From a phage: a DNA stretch of 64,000 bases. The position numbers were made by a program, and so were the translations under genes. Positions 2,801 to 12,225 of this stretch are shown piece by piece. The notes beneath the pieces were generated by a model. The model saw only the letters and a program-made list of their open reading frames with translations, did no database searches and was not told the origin of the DNA. The stretch lies in NCBI GenBank assembly GCA_036611895.1, contig GCA_036611895.1_4766.1. One strand, given 5' to 3'. Numbering within the stretch: the first letter of the stretch is position 1; each line of letters begins with the position of its first letter.

Positions 2801-3238
2801 TTAACTACGTTTAAGGCCAGCGAACAGTGAAGGCTTAGTAGCAGGTTTCTCTGCTGGTTCTTCGGCCTTAACCTCTTCCTGCACAACTTCTTCTTGTGCT
2901 TCTGGTTCAGCTACTGCTTCTTCAGGATCCGGCGTAGAACTCTCGTTCTGACCACCAGTAGAGGTCTGGGTTTCTTCTACCTTTACCTCTTCAACAGCTT
3001 CTTCCGGCTCTGGTTCTACCGGACGGTGTTTAGCTTCTTGAGGATTCTTACGAGAACGGCGAGTTTTCTTCTCTACTCCCACGGGTGGAGTGTCTTCGTG
3101 AACCTCTTCGTTAATACCAACGGAGGCAGTACCATCTGCATTGATGACAATATTAATGTCACCAGCAAGATTGATTTGATCATCAACATAAGCCTGTACA
3201 GCAGCTTCTACTTCGGACTGGTTCAAAATGATTTGCAT
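2801..3238 (-). CDS. hypothetical acidic protein
   Basis: 145-aa ORF with a strongly acidic, Glu/Pro-rich C-terminal half; 1-nt gap to the next gene. Confidence 0.5.
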   Translation of the reverse strand: MQIILNQSEVEAAVQAYVDDQINLAGDINIVINADGTASVGINEEVHEDTPPVGVEKKTRRSRKNPQEAKHRPVEPEPEEAVEEVKVEETQTSTGGQNESSTPDPEEAVAEPEAQEEVVQEEVKAEEPAEKPATKPSLFAGLKRS

Positions 3239-3239
3239 A

Positions 3240-3794
3240 TTACGCCTTTAATAACTTAATAAGGTTCTGGAAAGCTGGTAGATTTACGCCAGCATGGATT
3301 GCACCGATTGCATCAGCTAAGTGCTCATTCTTATTCAGAAGTTTGCCCTTCTTATCGGTGAGCCAGTTGGCTTCAGGATAGATGGCATGAGCAGCACGAA
3401 TCATCGTGTCTTTGGATGCAGTTTTATCACCGACCAGTGCAAGTTTGTTTTCAATTGGGGATACTTCAAAGATTGGACAACCCAATGCACGAAATGCACC
3501 GATTAATCCTACGCATACACCATAGGATTTCATACCGTTAGCAGACTGAGAGCCTACTGGTACTTCTACGAATACTGCTTTAGCAGATCGTAACCATTCC
3601 TCACAACCAAGAAACAAATCGTAAGCGGCTTGTATATCTTTGGAGTTGGTTCGAACTTGTTTGTTGTGGTCAACTTCAGTTTGAACCAGTTTAAGTTCGA
3701 CCTGCTCGAAGACGCCGGACTCAATGTCCAGCATCCCACGAGCTAAACCCCAATTGCGGAGACTAATGTCTGCACCAACAATTGGGATTTTCAT
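3240..3794 (-). CDS. RuvC-like Holliday junction resolvase
   Basis: N-terminal IVGADIS, mid VFVEVP and C-terminal EHLADAIGAIHAG resemble the RuvC catalytic D, E and HxADA motifs. Confidence 0.55.
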   Translation of the reverse strand: MKIPIVGADISLRNWGLARGMLDIESGVFEQVELKLVQTEVDHNKQVRTNSKDIQAAYDLFLGCEEWLRSAKAVFVEVPVGSQSANGMKSYGVCVGLIGAFRALGCPIFEVSPIENKLALVGDKTASKDTMIRAAHAIYPEANWLTDKKGKLLNKNEHLADAIGAIHAGVNLPAFQNLIKLLKA

Positions 3795-4591
3795 TAACGT
3801 TTACCGAACAGAGATTTACCACCAGCAGGAGTAGTACCCGTACCAGCACCTGGTTTAGGAGGTAAGCCACCTTTACCATTACCACCAGCAGAACTCTTAG
3901 TCTTGTCACGAGTTTTGCCTTTGTTCTTTTCCAGCCATGCTGCATAGAATACAGCCAGTTCTGGGGTCAGCTCTTTTTCAGCCTTCTCTGCTTCCTGAGC
4001 CTCGACGACTGTGACCAGCAGTTCCGGGTGAAACACTTTCTGAATCTCGTTTACTTCACGGGTTTCACCGGAGTCAACGTAGCCGTTGTCACCTTTAACC
4101 TGCTTGGATTCCAGAACTTTTTCCAGAGCGAAGGTAACAGTTTGACCAACCAGTTCAACTGGAACCATGACAGATTTATTAACTTCTGCTTTAGCGTCGT
4201 AGTCATAAACTTTGACAATCTTCTCTTCGAAGTCTGCTTCAGGCAGTTCAGTACCGGTAGCCATCAGCATCATGTCGTTAATGACAGTGTAGCCAGGCAA
4301 GAAGTATTCTTTACCGTTCTTCTCGTAAGTCGGCTTGTTGCCTTTAGCATTACCAGAAGTGAAGTACACCTGAGCACGGAACTCACCGGCAGGTACGCCA
4401 TCAGAGTTTTTCAGGTCTTCAATGATTAACTGCATCCAGTCTGCACCAGAGTCAGCTTTACCTACGTAAGCTACTTTTACAGTACCGGTGTAGATATCGG
4501 ATTCTTTTGCACCGAAGCCACCACCACCAAGGGAGTCTTTTACAGCTTCAACGTTTTTGGTTTTTTCTTTCAGATTACTGAACAATGACAT
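3794..4591 (-). CDS. single-stranded DNA-binding protein-like (N4 SSB-like by size and position)
   Basis: 265-aa ORF with a Gly/Pro-rich flexible C-terminal tail, located downstream of the replication genes; assignment by synteny. Confidence 0.4.
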   Translation of the reverse strand: MSLFSNLKEKTKNVEAVKDSLGGGGFGAKESDIYTGTVKVAYVGKADSGADWMQLIIEDLKNSDGVPAGEFRAQVYFTSGNAKGNKPTYEKNGKEYFLPGYTVINDMMLMATGTELPEADFEEKIVKVYDYDAKAEVNKSVMVPVELVGQTVTFALEKVLESKQVKGDNGYVDSGETREVNEIQKVFHPELLVTVVEAQEAEKAEKELTPELAVFYAAWLEKNKGKTRDKTKSSAGGNGKGGLPPKPGAGTGTTPAGGKSLFGKR

Positions 4592-4630: not shown

Positions 4631-5383
4631 TTAAGCGTAGTATTCAGCCAGATGGTCTAAGAGTTTCTGGGCATCGTTATCAATGTAAGTCTCGGACTTA
4701 TCGAACATACCCATTGGGGAACGAAGTCGTTTACCAACAGACTTCTTAGTAGGACGGGTCTGGAATACGTGCTTATATCCTAAGTCACGTTCTTCTTCCG
4801 TAATTTCTAACATCTTGTTCCCATACTTCTCTAGTTCTTTAATGTCTACACGTTCTGCGTAAACCACTGTAGAGAAGTAGGCTTCAAGCCCGTTATTCTT
4901 AAGAGAGCCTTTCACTGGGATGAATGTTTTCATCACACCAGCAGCTTCATCAAGTTCGTCTTTAGCGTGTGCAGTAATGATTACTGGCTTACCAAACTTA
5001 ACGACTTTCTGTTGCAGCAGTATCTTAAAGAACTGTGCAAAATCCCCCCATGCCTTTTGCGTATTTGCGGAAGGCAATACGTATTGGGATTCCAGCATAT
5101 CCATCATAAAGGTTGCTGAGTCAATGATGATACCATCAACATCATCTGCCATTTCTCCACCAGGAGATGCAACATCAAATGCTTCCCAAATCTGATATGG
5201 GTCTTCAATGTTGTAGGTATTGAACTTGTTACGGAAAGGCAGACGTTTACCTGCTTCAGTATTCAGATAGAGCCAGCGTTCCTGGTTCCTGATGTTACGC
5301 AGTGATGCTGATTTACCACTCGCTGAGAATCCTGCAATCAGGATTAGCTGAGTGTTCATATCATTGGGAATTACTTCGGACAT
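4631..5383 (-). CDS. RecA-like P-loop ATPase (AAA_24/Sak4-like)
   Basis: Walker A GFSASGKS near the N-terminus, hydrophobic strand plus D (IIIDSA) as Walker B; about 250 aa. Confidence 0.55.
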   Translation of the reverse strand: MSEVIPNDMNTQLILIAGFSASGKSASLRNIRNQERWLYLNTEAGKRLPFRNKFNTYNIEDPYQIWEAFDVASPGGEMADDVDGIIIDSATFMMDMLESQYVLPSANTQKAWGDFAQFFKILLQQKVVKFGKPVIITAHAKDELDEAAGVMKTFIPVKGSLKNNGLEAYFSTVVYAERVDIKELEKYGNKMLEITEEERDLGYKHVFQTRPTKKSVGKRLRSPMGMFDKSETYIDNDAQKLLDHLAEYYA

Positions 5384-5439: not shown

Positions 5440-7593
5440 TTACTTGCCAGCGAAGCGTTTAGCCACGGTGACCATTACGGTTGCATTCAACTCATCATCT
5501 GGTAATGGATTAGCCAGTTTCTTATTGAATGAGTGGACGGCTTGCTGTACTTGGGCAAAATCCCAACCGCTGTCAACCAATGCCAGTGCGTACTTAATCA
5601 TTTGATTATTACGATTACCGGTAGCAATACGACTAGCGAACCAACGCTCCAGATTATCCAACGACTGTACTTCCTTCATCTGGTTCTGGAACTGCTCGTT
5701 CTTACTAGTACGAGGAATAAAGTCACGCACGTCCAACAGATTTGCTTCAAGATTGTAATGATAAGAACCAGTCTCGCAGGACATCCACTTCTTGGCTCGC
5801 TGATTAGCAGACTCATCCGTTTCGAACGGTAGCCAAGACATAACGTTATTCATGAACTCTTTATATTCCTCGGTATCGAGGTGTAACTCATAGTTCATTG
5901 GAATAATCAGACGGAATCGGTTCTCTTCATCAGAATGACGTTTAGTGGTATAGGTCATGAACTTATATTCCTTCATCAGTTCATGGCACGTATGCAGTGG
6001 TACTCCACCATCACAGTCAATAACAATCATGTTAAATCCTGGAATAACGTTCTCTTCAGAACGATGCCCATTCTTCATGTGATGGTTTACCCAGTGCATA
6101 CCGGGAGCTTGGGTTAATACATGCAACTGGTCGAACGGTACACGTTCACCAATGTAGTCATAAGCAAAGCTATCACTATATGCCACTATCATCTCATTGA
6201 TGTCAGTTTCTTTCAGAGTTTCCCCACGGAAGAACTCAATACCTTCATTGAAGGTTTTCTTAATGATGATGTGCTGTTTGTAGCCCCATGCTGTAGCAAG
6301 GGTCATCATCTCATTACGAGCTGCATTGCCACTCTTATAGAACGGCAATGACTCTAGCAAGTCAGCATGAGTCACTTCTTTACCTACAGAAGCGATATAC
6401 TTAGCCAGCTTCACATAGGCTTTCTCACGATTGAGAATACCCTGGAATGCTGCTCCAGATTCCTCTACAAGCAGGATTGCTTGTTTAAGGTGGGACATCT
6501 CAATGAATGAACTCTGGTCAACAAACGCTAATGCACCTGCCAGTTTAAGTGCTTTGAAGTAACGGTGGGATATTTCGGCCTTACGAATTTCTTCGTGGTC
6601 AGCCATAGCTTCTGCCTGTTTCTCACAGTCAATTTTGTAAGTAATCAGAGCAATACCCACTGCATCTTCCACAACCATCTTAAAACCAAACAGGTTTGGG
6701 TCAGCCAGACTATGGAAATGGTTAGCCCACTTACCAAGAGACTGTACGTTATCCTGCTTAATCAGGTTACGGTATATTTCTTCTGGGGTCAGTGTTGCAT
6801 GTGCTCGTTTGTCTAAGTGACCAATGGCAAATAGACAGCGACGTGCATACCCTGTATCGAGGAAGTCATAGAACTGATCTTCAGTCTGACCACCATCCAG
6901 TAGTTTACTTGGTGTACCAAATAGCAACAGGTTAGCTGGAGTCTTACCATCCAGTTCTTCGCCACGAACACTTTCAGCAGTGTTTTTGGTTAGCTTCTGC
7001 TTAACCTTACCCTGGTCATATAACTCTAGGAACAGGGTTAATACATCTGTGTTAGCCAATAGGTTTGAACCAATCTCATCAATCTGAAGGTTGATTGAAC
7101 CACAGCCAGCCATTAACAGCTTATGACGTAGCTGTTTAACTGCCGGTGGAGTACCAGAGTCAAACGTAAACGGATATGCCCCGGCACGCTTATACTCTGC
7201 TTCAACTTTATCAAACTCATCATTCTGGTCTGTACCCTGACGAGCAGCACGTTCGTTAGCAATCTTCCATAAACGGTCATTTGCAATGACGGGCATGGTG
7301 TCTTCCATAAAACGTTTACGGAAGCCAGTCATGAACCCGTCTTCAATAATATTTACCGAGTGACCTTTACCGAAGCCAGACGTTGCTAATGCCATAGCGT
7401 AAATGTTGACTGGTAAGTCACCACGGTCTTTAGTGACAATGGTTGCACCCATGCAGGATGCCATTTTAGCCAGGAAGTAGGCTACTTCGACACGGAAGAA
7501 TCCTCTGTCGTTGTTTTGTGTCTTGTTACACAGCACATCTACAATTTCTTCAATTGCAGGGTGGTGACTTATGCCAGTAAGGTCAATACTCAT
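5440..7593 (-). CDS. DNA primase-like replication protein
   Basis: 717-aa ORF; C-terminal region has an hhhDxD-like motif (MIVIDCDGG) reminiscent of AEP primase-polymerases; position between ATPase and polymerase. Confidence 0.45.
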   Translation of the reverse strand: MSIDLTGISHHPAIEEIVDVLCNKTQNNDRGFFRVEVAYFLAKMASCMGATIVTKDRGDLPVNIYAMALATSGFGKGHSVNIIEDGFMTGFRKRFMEDTMPVIANDRLWKIANERAARQGTDQNDEFDKVEAEYKRAGAYPFTFDSGTPPAVKQLRHKLLMAGCGSINLQIDEIGSNLLANTDVLTLFLELYDQGKVKQKLTKNTAESVRGEELDGKTPANLLLFGTPSKLLDGGQTEDQFYDFLDTGYARRCLFAIGHLDKRAHATLTPEEIYRNLIKQDNVQSLGKWANHFHSLADPNLFGFKMVVEDAVGIALITYKIDCEKQAEAMADHEEIRKAEISHRYFKALKLAGALAFVDQSSFIEMSHLKQAILLVEESGAAFQGILNREKAYVKLAKYIASVGKEVTHADLLESLPFYKSGNAARNEMMTLATAWGYKQHIIIKKTFNEGIEFFRGETLKETDINEMIVAYSDSFAYDYIGERVPFDQLHVLTQAPGMHWVNHHMKNGHRSEENVIPGFNMIVIDCDGGVPLHTCHELMKEYKFMTYTTKRHSDEENRFRLIIPMNYELHLDTEEYKEFMNNVMSWLPFETDESANQRAKKWMSCETGSYHYNLEANLLDVRDFIPRTSKNEQFQNQMKEVQSLDNLERWFASRIATGNRNNQMIKYALALVDSGWDFAQVQQAVHSFNKKLANPLPDDELNATVMVTVAKRFAGK

Positions 7594-8105
7594 TTAAATA
7601 ATCCTAAGCTCATGTTAGTAACGGCAAATTCCCCAAAATGTGCTAATGCAGCTTGGTCATATACCTTAGCTGCCTCTACTGCATCTGGGAATACACCTAG
7701 AAAATGTGATTTGTGGTTTACCTTAATTGCTGCTTGGTATCCACTCCTGAATTTTGTAACACCCATAAAACCTGTAGTGTTGTTTTTATTCAGTCCACGG
7801 TTAGCTCCGTTAGTACTTTTATCGGCTTCTCTCAGATTGTCTATCCAGTTATGGGTTTTAATAGTGTCCTTATGGTCTAAAAGACCCTTTGGCCATACCC
7901 CATAAACATAGAACCAAGCTAATCTGTGAGCAGCTTCCCGTTTGGCATCAACAGTTATATAGATATAGCCGTCACTCTTGTTAACTGACCCAGCAATGCT
8001 ACCTACTGGTGTGCGATTACTGAGAGATATACGACGAGTGAAGATGCCAGTTTGAGCATCATAATGCAGTAATTCTTTCAGACGTTGCTGGGTCAGCTTA
8101 CTCAT
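7590..8105 (-). CDS. HNH homing endonuclease with AP2 DNA-binding domain
   Basis: HRLAW...G...DHKD...N motif followed by a C-terminal AP2-like domain (GVTKFRSGYQAAI...AAKVYDQAA); the likely start ATG at 8105 overlaps the upstream stop as ATGA. Confidence 0.8.
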   Translation of the reverse strand: MSKLTQQRLKELLHYDAQTGIFTRRISLSNRTPVGSIAGSVNKSDGYIYITVDAKREAAHRLAWFYVYGVWPKGLLDHKDTIKTHNWIDNLREADKSTNGANRGLNKNNTTGFMGVTKFRSGYQAAIKVNHKSHFLGVFPDAVEAAKVYDQAALAHFGEFAVTNMSLGLFK

Positions 8106-9082
8106 GATGGAAAATATCTCTCTCTTTGTTTGCAAATGGACGCGACAGGGCAGTACAGACAACGCTTAACCTGCCCCTCCACGACCTTGATAGCACCTTT
8201 GCCACCTTTTTCAGCCATGAAGATACGAGCAGATGCCATATCGTCAAAGTTTTTGGTACTTCTGGCTCCAGGTACATCTACCTTAGAAGCATCAGAGAAG
8301 TATTTGAACTGTGGCTCTGTTCGCCACAACTCCTCGTCAGTACATTCAGGAATTTCCTCTTCAGGTGCATTCCAGTAATTCTCAATGAGGTGAATCTTCT
8401 CTTCTACCCAACGTTCAGTCTTATCGACAGATAGCAACGGAATATCCTTATGCATAATACGATTAGCAGGATAGTTCGGATTGCTATTAGCCATGTGCTT
8501 CATGAAGTCAGTGAAGATGTAGTTAATACGAATTACATCCTCGGTAATGATGTCGTTGTGAATCCAACGATACAAGCTGCCTTGCATCTTGTGTTCATCA
8601 TCACGGGAACCAGCAACCCAGGAATAGGTTGAGGTAGACTTAAAGTCCTGCAACAGACCTTCTGTTACGATGTCGAACTTACCACCGATAGTCCAACCCT
8701 TAACTACCCTGGTTCCACGCTTTTCAATGTAGATTGGGATAAGGTCAGGGTTAGCATCAAAGTCTGCTTTGGTTGGGTTAATGACTACTGCATCAATTAC
8801 TCGCTGAGGATAACCCAGTTTTTTCAATGCAGTCTTATGACCCAGCTTCCAGGCTTTCTCGATAGAATCATGTAAGCCAGTACCCATTGATGTGGAGACG
8901 AAATCCATAACATCAATTGACTGGTCACTTAAATCTACACGATGTTTCATGACGATTTGCTTAATAGGCTTAAGCAATGTAGTAACAGACAGATACTTAG
9001 GATTGTCTACGTAATCATACTCGTCATGCAATAGCCATACAGCCAGAGCCAGTGAGACATCATGGTTGTTGGTTATTTTCAT
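8102..9082 (-). CDS. PD-(D/E)XK nuclease (RecB/Cas4-like exonuclease)
   Basis: GGKFDIVTEGLLQDFK core (D...E/Q-x-K) and a C-terminal Cys cluster CLYCPVASIC. Confidence 0.5.
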   Translation of the reverse strand: MKITNNHDVSLALAVWLLHDEYDYVDNPKYLSVTTLLKPIKQIVMKHRVDLSDQSIDVMDFVSTSMGTGLHDSIEKAWKLGHKTALKKLGYPQRVIDAVVINPTKADFDANPDLIPIYIEKRGTRVVKGWTIGGKFDIVTEGLLQDFKSTSTYSWVAGSRDDEHKMQGSLYRWIHNDIITEDVIRINYIFTDFMKHMANSNPNYPANRIMHKDIPLLSVDKTERWVEEKIHLIENYWNAPEEEIPECTDEELWRTEPQFKYFSDASKVDVPGARSTKNFDDMASARIFMAEKGGKGAIKVVEGQVKRCLYCPVASICKQRERYFPS

Positions 9083-9344
9083 TATATGCCTTTTTCAATA
9101 TACGGTTGGCATAGTGCACAATCTTCTCTGAGTCGTACACCGAAGAGTTTCCAGGTTTACCATTACCCATACGGGCAGCAGCATTTCGCCACAGAGCTTT
9201 AAAGGCACAACCTTCATCGAAGGTCATGCCTAGTGCTTGAATAATATCCTCACACTCTGCTTGGTATGGCTCTTGCTCTTTCCGTTGAGGGTGCTTAACT
9301 GGTACTACATACCAGTTATTCAATCCACCGGAGAGCTTAGCCAT
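9060..9344 (-). CDS. hypothetical protein
   Basis: 94-aa ORF packed between nuclease and polymerase genes. Confidence 0.4.
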   Translation of the reverse strand: MAKLSGGLNNWYVVPVKHPQRKEQEPYQAECEDIIQALGMTFDEGCAFKALWRNAAARMGNGKPGNSSVYDSEKIVHYANRILKKAYNENNQQP

Positions 9345-9649
9345 TATTTATCCTTAGGAATCATGTTTGCCTGGAACTCTGGTTCAGACATCAGACCCAG
9401 GTTGCTGAGAGACAGGTAAATGATGTCTTTCAAGTCAACCGAGGTATCGAAACGCTGGTCCAGACTAATCTTCAGGGAATGATTGGCACGGGCCAAATCT
9501 TTATAGGTCACATAAGGTTCATCAGTGAGCAACATTGTGTTCATGGTAAGCAGGGAACCATCATCCACTTTAGGAAGTTGGAAGACTACCTGTGCTGCTA
9601 CCATCCAATGATATTTTCTGACTACAGTTTCTTTAGTACTTTTGGTCAT
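9344..9649 (-). CDS. hypothetical protein
   Basis: 101-aa ORF; stop/start overlap with flanking genes. Confidence 0.4.
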   Translation of the reverse strand: MTKSTKETVVRKYHWMVAAQVVFQLPKVDDGSLLTMNTMLLTDEPYVTYKDLARANHSLKISLDQRFDTSVDLKDIIYLSLSNLGLMSEPEFQANMIPKDK

Positions 9650-12225
9650 GCGAATGCCTTTTGAATTATTTGATGAACTTCTTCTGGGGTAGCGTGATTT
9701 GGAATTTCAATCTCGTTAGCCCACGTTGGGTAAAACAAGGATAGTTCCCCACCCAAACCAACCTCTGGATGAGCAATATCAGGATGATCTTGCCAGTTAA
9801 CGGCTTCAACCAAATACTTGTTCGTGAACTGCAGGGTATCCATGTTGTCACGAATCATGAAGTACTGAGCATCATGAATATGAATACTAGGACGAATATC
9901 TAACCTGAACTCACTGGCTCTGACTTTACGCATAAACTCCGAACCAGCACGGTTATTCAGTAGACACCAGCTTTGCCCTAAAGCATTACCAGCAGTTCTG
10001 CCTTCTGCTTCTGCTTCATACGGAGTCTTACATGTCCCACGTAATACCTGAGCCAGTAAAGGAGTACGCACTCTCAATCCGAATGCGGCAGTAACATAAC
10101 CAGTTTTGGCAGCTTCGTCTAGCTTAGCCTGAACCCACATGTCACTAACTACGTAGAGATCGTGATAACGTTTCTCTGTAGTCTTAGCCTTTTCTTCAGA
10201 GAAGCCACAGTTTTTCATTAAGCCCATATACGTACCACCATAGGTAAGCAAGAAGGTTGGAGCCTTCGAGTCACTACGCAATGATTTGTACTTATGCTGA
10301 ATGGAGTTAATGGATTCTACCGTATCTTCTATGTCTGGCATCTGCTCGCCAAAGTAAGCATATGCACGGAGACTATGCCCATCGTAGCCATCGGTATATA
10401 CCTTAAGCTTCTGTGGGTCTTTAGTAGTCAGTGCAGAGATTCTGTCTTCCAGCGAGGCGAAATCCAAGCCGCAAAATATCCAGCCTGGAGGAGCTTCGAA
10501 GCATTTCTTAATCTTCTTGGCATATTTAGAGCCGGATGGAATTGTTTGTAGATTTGGCTCTGAAGCCGATAGCCTACCGGAGACTGTGCCTCCCAGATTG
10601 AGGTTACCGAATAGGTAGTGCCAGCCATCCGGTCCCGGTTGGGCATTCCTGAAAGCTGGTATAAAGCTAGTGATAATCTTATCCACGAGCTTATAGTCGA
10701 TAAGTGCATTGAGCAGTTCCTTAACATCTTCACTCTGCGTATGGGTACGCAGTGCTTTAATAGTGTCACCGTCAGTAGCAGGTTGCTTGCTCTTAGTAAG
10801 ACCAAGAACAGGTAAGCCAATATAGTCAAATAACAGCTTCTGTAACTGTGGACCAGAGTTAGGATTAAACTCGATATCACAGTCAGCAAGCGTTACCTGC
10901 TTCTTCTTCAACTTAGCATTCTTATCGTCTACCCATTCCTGACGAAGCATCAGGGTGAAATTCTTCATGAGCTTAGACTCACGAATAGTTTTCAGAGCCT
11001 GGTTCCTGTCAGTTTCCATCTCCTTAGCCACTTGGTTAACGGTATCCATATTCATGGGCATACCGGTTAACTGCATCTGGATGATGTCTTCGCAAGCTGG
11101 TTTAAAGATGTTGTTGTAAACATCTAGTTGGTCATCAGCAATGAGAGTATCCCAGTGCTTCTCATAGGTGTACCAAGTACACAAACCATCAATGAGGTTG
11201 TAACGTAACAGTTGCTCATTAGGAATAAGACGAATGTCTTTAATATCATCCTGAGCATAGTTACCAGCATACTCCTGAGCCTGATCTTTCAGACTAAGGT
11301 GATTACCAGCACAACTATTAGTAGCCAGGTAGGTGATTAACTTAGTACAGTCCCAGTTACGTAGCATGATATCCATGCCATGCAGTAAGCCTTCCGTATC
11401 AATCAGATTATCCATGAATAACTGATAGATAAGCACATACACGTCATAGCTAATGTTGTGATACATCTGACGTTGTGTGTACTTAATGAAGAACTCACGC
11501 AGAAGATTTCGAACAATATCGTTTCTGTTGATACGCCCATAAGGTGCTTCAGTAGCTCCAGGAATTGGCTCGTAGTCCACATTAAAGGCTATGCCTTGTG
11601 TCTTACTCCAACAGAATGTAATTGTCCCTATACCGGCGTTATAGTGCTTTAAACCGAATGCTTCAATGTCTATAGCCAGAGGCTTATTCATCTCAAGCAG
11701 TTGGTCTAGCCAGGCTTTAATCTTCTCTGGGGTATCCGGATAGGCTTCAAACTCAATGATTCCCTGACCTGGTTCAGCATACTGTCCACGTATGTGGTTA
11801 AGTAATGCATCCATACCCTGAGCAATCTTGGATTTTACTACAGGAGGATCATAAAAGACCTGCCTGTAGCTAGGTGCATAGATAACCTTCTGCTTACCCC
11901 ATACTGAGTCACAAACATAGCCGAGGTTAGCCTCTGCTTTAGCTTCTTTAGTCAGTATTTTGAAGTAATCAGAATCGGTACAGATAATGTATTGAGTCTC
12001 TGCATCATCCAGTACTTGTTGCAACTCCTGCTGTATGAACTCCTTAATCTCCCTTGCAGGAGTCTTCTTCTTGCCTGGGGCAGAATGAAGTTCAATGAAG
12101 ATGAAATCTTCCATACTAAGGTCATTAGGCAGCAGGTAGGTTTTAATCATCTCCTCCCTTCGGATTTGATGACCGAGGATAGCAATAGGATACTTACCCG
12201 TATCTTGAGAGGTGATGTAACGCAT
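9646..12225 (-). CDS. DNA polymerase, family A, with 3'-5' exonuclease domain
   Basis: Exo motif IDIEAFGL; Pol motif A LDFASLEDRISAL, motif B KAPTFLLTYGGTYMG, motif C HIHDAQ; 859 aa; RBS AAGGT upstream. Confidence 0.9.
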   Translation of the reverse strand: MRYITSQDTGKYPIAILGHQIRREEMIKTYLLPNDLSMEDFIFIELHSAPGKKKTPAREIKEFIQQELQQVLDDAETQYIICTDSDYFKILTKEAKAEANLGYVCDSVWGKQKVIYAPSYRQVFYDPPVVKSKIAQGMDALLNHIRGQYAEPGQGIIEFEAYPDTPEKIKAWLDQLLEMNKPLAIDIEAFGLKHYNAGIGTITFCWSKTQGIAFNVDYEPIPGATEAPYGRINRNDIVRNLLREFFIKYTQRQMYHNISYDVYVLIYQLFMDNLIDTEGLLHGMDIMLRNWDCTKLITYLATNSCAGNHLSLKDQAQEYAGNYAQDDIKDIRLIPNEQLLRYNLIDGLCTWYTYEKHWDTLIADDQLDVYNNIFKPACEDIIQMQLTGMPMNMDTVNQVAKEMETDRNQALKTIRESKLMKNFTLMLRQEWVDDKNAKLKKKQVTLADCDIEFNPNSGPQLQKLLFDYIGLPVLGLTKSKQPATDGDTIKALRTHTQSEDVKELLNALIDYKLVDKIITSFIPAFRNAQPGPDGWHYLFGNLNLGGTVSGRLSASEPNLQTIPSGSKYAKKIKKCFEAPPGWIFCGLDFASLEDRISALTTKDPQKLKVYTDGYDGHSLRAYAYFGEQMPDIEDTVESINSIQHKYKSLRSDSKAPTFLLTYGGTYMGLMKNCGFSEEKAKTTEKRYHDLYVVSDMWVQAKLDEAAKTGYVTAAFGLRVRTPLLAQVLRGTCKTPYEAEAEGRTAGNALGQSWCLLNNRAGSEFMRKVRASEFRLDIRPSIHIHDAQYFMIRDNMDTLQFTNKYLVEAVNWQDHPDIAHPEVGLGGELSLFYPTWANEIEIPNHATPEEVHQIIQKAFA

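Follow-up and report, generated by a model that had tools for sequence, protein, structure and literature searches.

A probable free-standing homing endonuclease gene of the HNH-AP2 type at the exonuclease/primase junction of a Gamaleyavirus

How a nuclease gene comes to lie between two replication genes, sharing nucleotides with both of them, is the question raised by a stretch of phage DNA of 64,000 nucleotides (nt) (GenBank assembly GCA_036611895.1, contig GCA_036611895.1_4766.1), which is referred to here as the window and is part of a Gamaleyavirus genome (a G7C-like/N4-like coliphage; Schitoviridae, Enquatrovirinae). The gene, at positions 7590-8105 of the minus strand, encodes a protein of 171 residues, and we assign a probability of about 0.8 to the reading that it represents a homing endonuclease gene (HEG) of the HNH_3 + AP2 class, free-standing and housed in the replication-gene operon. 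This reading is supported by the sporadic presence of the gene, by purifying selection on its product and by a divergence that does not track that of its flanks.

Sporadic presence at one precise junction

The HEG, defined by its open reading frame (ORF) and by family matches, starts with an ATG at 8105 and ends with a TGA at 7590-7592. Direct reading of the sequence shows that it shares an ATGA with each neighbour on the same strand: at 8102-8105 its start overlaps the stop of the exonuclease gene gp42 (8102-9082) upstream, and at 7590-7593 its stop overlaps the start of the primase gene gp43 (5440-7593) downstream, the presumed target gene. Both neighbours are full length. The first-pass annotation had placed the gene between primase and nuclease genes, with its ATG overlapping the upstream stop as ATGA, and had remarked that the mechanical ORF runs 19 codons further upstream; each of these points holds, the upstream gene being the exonuclease gene and the longer ORF opening at a TTG at 8162, while homologues always use the ATG. 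Beyond that annotation, the 3′ end overlaps just as seamlessly, TGA with the primase ATG. An HEG encoded within an intron or intein was considered and is excluded by these overlaps, since complete ORFs on both sides leave no non-coding sequence for an intron. The HEG is free-standing.

The insert measures 512 nt and carries ATGAGTA at both ends. In the empty allele, found in pSb-1, G7C, PW8 and others, the exonuclease stop overlaps the primase start directly (...TTTTCCATC-ATGA-GTATTGACC). The allele reads GGAGTCACT in the empty phages pSb-1, PD205 and nithesis and GGAGTAGTG in the empty phage G7C, compared to GGCATAAGT in the HEG-bearing window phage. ATGAGTA is the only countable sequence shared by the starts of the HEG and the primase gene at the junction. 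A shared ATGAGTA and CTGACC raised the idea that the HEG product opens (MSKLT...) with a leftover of the primase N-terminus (MSIDLT...); this was rejected for the "LT" because "LTxxRLxELL" is a family-wide N-terminal consensus that also occurs in homologues outside N4-like phages. Separately, the exonuclease region of pSb-1 (L002, ~3595-4293) differs from all other genomes by a 1-nt indel, which accounts for a truncated exonuclease annotation (873 nt) and an apparent 105-nt intergenic gap; the indel is probably a sequencing or assembly error and not a true difference at the junction.

A 5-kb query around the HEG matched 83 phage records and, outside the insert, the best matches (Shigella phage pSb-1 and Escherichia phages HK2, PE007 and PD205) are 96% identical. 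A census was then taken with an empty-site query against GenBank phage records, IMG/VR holding only ~7 Gamaleyaviruses; after GenBank/RefSeq pairs were deduplicated, it covered about 42 distinct Gamaleyaviruses, with approximate counts drawn from the match table. An HEG like that of the window (type 1) is present in five phages, ZQ2, PBM-2, PBM-3, UE-M6 and PhAPEC5, with a junction span of 1512 nt. A different HNH-AP2 gene of ~30% amino acid identity (type 2) occupies the junction in three, EC1-UPM, U1G and PGN829.1 (span ~1475 nt), and the ATGA junction is uninterrupted in about 34 (span ~1000 nt). Type 1 is also found in Moo19, a phage of another genus (Moovirus), and in ZQ2, PBM-2/3, UE-M6, PhAPEC5 and Moo19 the gene at this site is annotated as an HNH homing endonuclease. 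The expectation voiced at first pass, that presence should vary between related genomes, agrees with these figures (~5 of 42 with type 1, ~34 of 42 uninterrupted): the proposed comparison of the primase-nuclease junction among relatives found a sporadic HEG with a precise empty site, and universal presence, which would have spoken against a mobile gene, is not what the relatives display.

The allele of the window occurs in no GenBank phage, where the best nucleotide identities are 81% (Moo19) and 77.7% (the ZQ2 group); a near-identical HEG (98.4%) is present in two Logan assemblies. Among 80 N4-like loci retrieved from IMG/VR with the exonuclease, nine have an HNH homologue (32-80% amino acid identity) exactly between exonuclease and primase, and most of the others have a junction gap of at most ~10 nt. 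All eight homologues of at least 51% identity that were looked up (P0001, P0004, P0005, P0006, P0012, P0013, P0016 and P0017) sit at this junction in different N4-like phages, and a 48% homologue (P0023) is located elsewhere, among structural genes. The HEG clade is tied to one site, the exonuclease/primase junction, including that of distant Schitoviridae.

The type 2 gene shares no DNA similarity with type 1 and lies at 3084-3572 in EC1-UPM (L006) and 2041-2478 in U1G (L146). It is also present at the same junction in three metagenomic phages (L062-L064). The occurrence of this unrelated gene indicates that two HEG lineages compete for one site.

Between the three type 1 sublineages, the ratio of non-synonymous to synonymous divergence (dN/dS) of the HEG is 0.08-0.14 at a synonymous divergence (dS) of 0.9-1.4, and these low ratios indicate that the protein is maintained by selection. 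Its history is decoupled from that of its flanks, which belong to two haplotypes. Between the window and ZQ2, dS is 1.29 for the HEG, 0.14 for the exonuclease gene and 0.61 for the primase gene, and between the window and Moo19 the corresponding values are 0.94, 2.1 and 0.96. The flanks of the window are closest to those of HEG-less phages, primase nt 100-400 being 99-100% identical to PD205, nithesis and PW8. As the HEG is out of step with its flanks in dS, either the HEG has moved relative to the flanks or the flanks have moved relative to the HEG.

The same data bear on a different reading, in which the nuclease has been domesticated and serves the phage, either by nicking for replication or recombination together with the exonuclease, the primase and Sak4, or by degrading host or competitor DNA. 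Its position inside the replication module with translational coupling, the strong purifying selection (dN/dS ~0.1) and the long association of its clade with the junction across the Schitoviridae would suit such a role. However, some 80% of the closest relatives lack the gene and have a perfectly intact junction, hence it is dispensable. A different HNH gene can fill the same site, the divergence of the HEG is mismatched with that of its flanks, and the recoded target patch described below is the expected cargo of a self-protecting HEG. Domestication is thus unlikely, and a homing gene remains the preferred reading.

The two-domain nuclease and its operon

The catalytic half of the protein is readily recognized. 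Pfam HNH_3 (PF13392) matches residues 58-100 (7806-7934, minus strand) with 38.9 bits against a gathering cut-off of 24.8 (E = 6.7e-10), and PHROG 99 "HNH endonuclease" matches the whole length (E = 1e-62). A family profile built from 38 homologous sequences aligns with I-HmuI (PDB 1u3e) over profile positions 33-105 (E = 2e-6), placing D77 and H78 (codons at 7872-7877) and N99 (7809-7811) opposite D74, H75 and N96 of I-HmuI, which reportedly serve as metal ligands and general base in the I-HmuI structure. H60, H78, N90, L91, R92 and N99 are invariant across the 38 homologues, and D77 and N102 are likewise invariant in a 35-sequence set. The β-strand region preceding the HNH domain (residues 1-57; 7935-8105) corresponds to the N-terminal DNA-contacting part of I-HmuI, and the protein has the ββα-metal fold of His-Me finger endonucleases. 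The clear HNH motif that the first-pass annotation reported is therefore corroborated by HNH_3, PHROG 99 and the catalytic residues, and careful alignment revealed D77, H78 and N99 to be retained rather than lost.

The C-terminal residues ~112-163 (7617-7772) form a three-stranded antiparallel sheet packed on one helix, as in the AP2/ERF-type DNA-binding domain. Positions 110-165 of the 38-sequence profile match the AP2/ERF structures of WRI1 (PDB 7wq5, 8e-11), TEM1 (7et4, 3e-8), ERF096 (5wx9, 4e-6) and AtERF1 (1gcc, 5e-5). Among 237 homologues, many of those covering at least 90% of the query carry both PF00847 and PF13392, and full-length homologues at 45-50% identity likewise carry both Pfam domains. 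The C-terminal AP2 domain put forward at first pass is upheld by the family profile and by the predicted structure, which is confident, but the Pfam AP2 model (PF00847) itself does not detect it, giving no match to the protein even at E ≤ 10. Altogether, the product is an intact two-domain protein that combines an I-HmuI-like His-Me finger nuclease with an AP2 DNA-binding domain.

This intactness bears on two further readings. The gene might be a decaying relic, a once-mobile HEG that is now inactive and hitch-hikes with its neighbours. HEGs commonly degenerate after fixation, a search of the window found no sequence resembling the sensitive primase allele, and the protein differs from its nearest relatives at five residues with a pairwise dN/dS of 0.46. 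Against decay, the ORF is not truncated, none of the invariant or catalytic residues has been lost, the structure is confidently predicted and deeper comparisons give the low ratios quoted above, whereas the value of 0.46 rests on only eight nucleotide differences; we regard a relic as very unlikely. Alternatively, the protein might be an AP2-type regulator with a vestigial HNH domain, acting mainly to repress or activate phage or host genes in a sequence-specific manner. AP2 domains are transcription factors elsewhere, and DNA-binding domains of HEGs have been co-opted as repressors (PMC10448857). Nevertheless, the catalytic residues of the HNH domain do not vary within the family, the distribution of the gene is sporadic and site-specific, and no regulatory target is evident, which makes a regulator most improbable. 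As judged from its sequence features, the homing endonuclease is intact and probably active.

The minus-strand genes around the HEG follow the order of phage N4. Upstream lie the genes for DNA polymerase gp39 (9646-12225), gp40 (9344-9649), gp41 (9060-9344) and the exonuclease gp42, an enzyme of the PD-(D/E)XK type with 326 residues, which is assigned by PHROG 2139 "exonuclease" (E = 5e-151), a weak PDDEXK_1 match and the annotation of relatives. Downstream are the genes for the 717-residue DNA primase gp43, identified by PriCT_1 (E = 9e-7), PHROG 2135 "DNA primase" (E = 0) and annotations in relatives, for the Sak4/AAA protein gp44 (4631-5383) and for the SSB gp45 (3794-4591), all on the minus strand. 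The 30 nt before the HEG ATG lead into the primase ATG where no insert is present, and an AGGA with an upstream spacing of 9 nt to the primase ATG falls within the codons for the conserved C-terminal "...SLGL" of the HEG. A promoter and terminator scan, with N4-type promoters outside the range of the tool, found no sigma-70-like promoter or intrinsic terminator tied to the HEG. The simplest reading of this arrangement would be that the HEG is transcribed as part of the replication operon and that translation is coupled across each ATGA overlap. A search of the window found no second copy of the HEG family.

A recoded primase start and a parallel at the exonuclease gene

The 5′ end of the primase gene in the window carries a recoded patch at primase nt 15-27 (7567-7579, minus strand), where CTT ACT GGC ATA AGT encodes LTGIS (codons 5-9). 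The flanks of the junction were aligned for 28 genomes, namely nine of type 1, two of type 2 and 17 empty, and primase nt 15-27 separate the nine HEG-bearing genomes from the 17 empty ones perfectly. The patch reads CTT ACT GG(C/T) AT(A/C) AG(T/C), encoding LTGIS, in type 1 genomes, whereas the same codons are CTG ACC GGA GTC ACT or CTT ACC GGA GTA GTG in empty genomes (GIS versus GVT or GVV). It is found on both downstream haplotypes, pSb-1-like and G7C-like. Compared to its nearest empty relatives, the window differs at primase nt 15, 18, 21, 22, 24 and 26, then at nt 57 and next only beyond nt 260; thus six of the 9-11 differences in the first 400 nt cluster within 13 nt (nt 15-26; P ~1e-7 under a uniform model).

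Recoding of this segment is not confined to type 1. In type 2 genomes, primase nt 18-84 are recoded, the Ser2 codon is lost and the last ~28 nt of the exonuclease gene are recoded as well. Moreover, in two metagenomic relatives, native primase codons are fused in frame to the HEG: the HEG ORF begins MMDLTGVVH|ERLL in L153 (primase codons 1-9) and MIDLTGVSHH|RLLE in L154 (codons 1-10). The real primase downstream is recoded in both, to MIDLTNTVHH and MIDLTGTTHH, respectively, so that GV has become NT or GT. Both fusions break at nt 27-30, where the patch of the window has its right edge.

The primase N-terminus, M(S)IDLTGVxHHPAIEEIV, is highly conserved in the Schitoviridae. The canonical G-V of its G-V-x-H-H motif is kept at 42 of 56 empty loci, compared to two of 11 HEG-bearing lineages (Fisher p = 6e-4, ignoring phylogeny). 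One HEG-less N4-like locus, L134 (IMGVR_UViG_3300045942_000002), has GGC ATC (G-I) at primase codons 7-8, as in HEG-bearing Gamaleyaviruses; it may represent a lineage that lost the HEG and kept a resistant site, or a naturally resistant allele.

The recoded tracts of type 2, the fusions in L153 and L154, the family-wide pattern and the anatomy of a paralogue described below together place the putative target and cut site at about primase nt 15-30. The recoding of primase codons 5-9 in all carriers is consistent with cleavage of insert-free relatives. On balance we favour a model in which the enzyme would recognise and cut this position, the patch would be at once an obligatory co-conversion tract and the basis of immunity, and the mobile unit would comprise the HEG and the recoded 5′ end of its target gene. 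In this model, the HEG would be co-transcribed with the replication genes and its translation coupled to the exonuclease stop codon. During a mixed infection, the monomeric enzyme would bind an asymmetric site of ~20-30 bp at the primase start of an HEG-less co-infecting phage and nick or cut it at about nt 15-30, and recombinational repair off the HEG-bearing genome would copy in both the HEG and, next to it, the recoded primase nt 15-27. The substitutions from GGA GTC ACT or GTA GTG to GGC ATA AGT would shield the carrier from its own enzyme. A unit of this design could sit at or inside conserved coding sequence without an intron or intein.

Several points weigh against the homing reading and the role given to the patch, in addition to the failure of the Pfam AP2 model to detect the C-terminal domain. 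The patch lies only 15 nt from the HEG, so tight linkage would be expected from proximity alone, and a functional role is supported only by the fact that the patch exists, that its changes cluster and that it recurs in independent lineages. The test on G-V retention takes no account of phylogeny; two HEG-bearing lineages (L073 and L158) keep the canonical G-V codons and 14 empty loci are without them. The recognised sequence is not sharply defined either, given that nt 24-33 also vary between the two empty haplotypes of Gamaleyavirus. The HEG sublineages are old (dS ~1), which could reflect long vertical persistence with recombining flanks in place of frequent homing. Finally, the activity of the enzyme, its mode of cleavage (a nick or a double-strand break) and its exact site are all inferred from sequence comparison.

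A paralogue in the same genus has a comparable anatomy. This HNH-AP2 gene, gp41.1 (47% amino acid identity), lies at the gp41/exonuclease junction of G7C (L003, 4763-5331), PW8 (L005), Bp4 (L143) and ECBP1 (L058). Upstream of it stands an orphan, native-like copy of the first 65 nt of the exonuclease gene, closed by a stop codon and identical at 62 of 65 positions to the intact exonuclease gene of the window. Downstream of it, the functional exonuclease gene opens with a recoded copy of the same 65 nt (44-45 of 65 identical), with identity returning from nt 66 on. This second site is empty in the window, whose exonuclease 5′ end (9018-9082) has the native sequence, which is presumably sensitive. 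Upstream of the HNH genes at this site in the distant phages L126 and L129, no orphan exonuclease remnant was found; the remnant is documented only within Gamaleyavirus.

We consider the chances about even that this HNH-AP2 clade uses a general, intron-free mode of invading conserved coding sequence, in which each HEG would move as a cassette with a copy of the opening 27-65 nt of the essential gene downstream, recoded to resist cleavage. Insertion of such a cassette near the cut site in the 5′ end of the gene would strand the native 5′ end, and the recoded copy would make the gene whole again and render the carrier immune. The stranded piece would then persist as an orphan (the second site in G7C), be fused to the N-terminus of the HEG (L153 and L154) or be trimmed to at most 7 nt (the window). 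The exonuclease gene of Gamaleyaviruses may be bracketed by two such cassettes and a competing, unrelated HNH gene.

Some further variation was observed at and around these genes. The gp41 gene of the window is a short allele of 94 codons that overlaps the exonuclease start by 23 nt, whereas in G7C, nithesis, St11Ph5 and PBM-3 it encodes ~155 residues, is ~184 nt longer and abuts the exonuclease gene. PHROG matches suggest that the short form corresponds to the N-terminal 91 residues of a 157-residue family, and the length indel directly adjoins the second HEG site. In one of the two assemblies with the near-identical HEG (L147, Logan SRR35014788), an extra HNH_3 ORF of 180 residues (125-667) splits the DNA polymerase gene into two called pieces; the polymerase gene of the window is intact. 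A preprint on the G7C group also mentions insertions in polymerase genes (10.1101/542787). In the N4-like contig L154 (ENA ERZ27239175, 727-1892), the primase gene downstream of the junction HEG is interrupted, with a 73-residue N-terminal piece followed by a 208-residue, NUMOD4-containing HNH gene and then the remainder of the primase; the target gene of the junction HEG thus contains another HEG. In PW8 (L005, 721-1680), another HNH gene of 163 residues, unrelated to the HEG of the window by BLAST, lies beside a Sak4-like gene annotated at only 111 residues, hinting at one more HEG site, with gp44 disrupted or split by it.

Relation to known systems and meaning

The HNH-AP2 class of HEG is already known, and relatives of the window carry the same annotation. 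As far as the citation in PMC10448857 goes, proteins combining HNH and AP2 domains are a recognised HEG family in phages, cyanobacteria and ciliates (Magnani, Sjolander & Hake 2004, cited in PMC10448857). Phage records often label these genes "HNH homing endonuclease" or "pathogenesis-related transcriptional factor and ERF protein". The gene of the window resembles the family in its N-terminal HNH_3 and C-terminal AP2 domains, its size (~165-175 residues) and its free-standing position in a phage genome, and differs in having an AP2 domain below the Pfam threshold and in belonging to a clade tied to the exonuclease/primase junction of N4-like phages. To our knowledge, no member of this junction-specific clade has been studied biochemically. 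A literature search found no paper on the junction HEG or on the recoded-duplicate arrangement, an absence that is weak evidence.

The catalytic half of the protein resembles I-HmuI (PDB 1u3e), the HNH nicking homing endonuclease of Bacillus phage SPO1, which nicks its target rather than cutting both strands. Unlike the HEG of the window, which is free-standing and has an AP2 domain, I-HmuI comes from an ORF inside a group I intron and binds DNA at its C-terminal end through a helical region of the helix-turn-helix type. Phage HNH enzymes such as I-HmuI are extended monomers with contacts of up to 30 bp (PMC3943268).

In its setting, the gene is similar to the T4 Seg and Mob enzymes, as it lies between essential genes and presumably cuts a neighbour gene of HEG-less relatives; as in T4, the carrier would be guarded by a target polymorphism and flanking markers would be co-converted. 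Free-standing HEGs of T4 (SegF, SegG, SegE and MobE) are reported to act by "intronless homing" or marker exclusion. However, Seg enzymes are of the GIY-YIG type and Mob enzymes are HNH proteins without AP2. Moreover, unlike in T4, the putative site lies only ~15-30 nt from the insertion point, and the protective polymorphism would be a compact recoded copy of the 5′ end travelling with the HEG.

G7C gp41.1 shares the domain architecture, the ATGA overlap with the downstream gene and the design of a native remnant plus a recoded 5′ end. By contrast, its target would be the exonuclease gene, at whose 5′ end it is inserted after nt 65, and its native remnant is an orphan mini-ORF of 65 nt compared to at most 7 nt at the HEG of the window. 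The IPA-HNH HEGs of ICP1-like vibriophages likewise combine HNH and AP2 and flank essential replication genes on one or both sides (Barth et al. 2023, PMC10448857). In their "HEG islands", cognate sites can be taken by homologous or unrelated HEGs, resembling the HEG cluster around the Gamaleyavirus exonuclease gene, but the IPA-HNH domains are described as too divergent for Pfam HNH_3 (PMC10448857), whereas the protein of the window matches it clearly. In the G7C group, many indel loci involve homing endonuclease-like genes (bioRxiv 10.1101/542787).

To this picture the present locus adds a predicted site of action at primase nt ~15-30, with six substitutions predicted to confer immunity. It also adds a putative recoded target segment that would travel with its HEG, is mirrored at a second site in the genus and appears fossilised as N-terminal fusions in two metagenomic relatives. 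The protein itself would offer a compact, monomeric HNH-AP2 scaffold with a guessable target. Association with self-splicing elements lets HEGs invade conserved coding sequence, as reviewed (PMC3943268); the recoded-duplicate strategy, if true, would be an alternative route to the start of a conserved essential gene without an intron or intein, and would bear on mosaicism and marker exclusion among the therapeutic coliphages of the G7C group.

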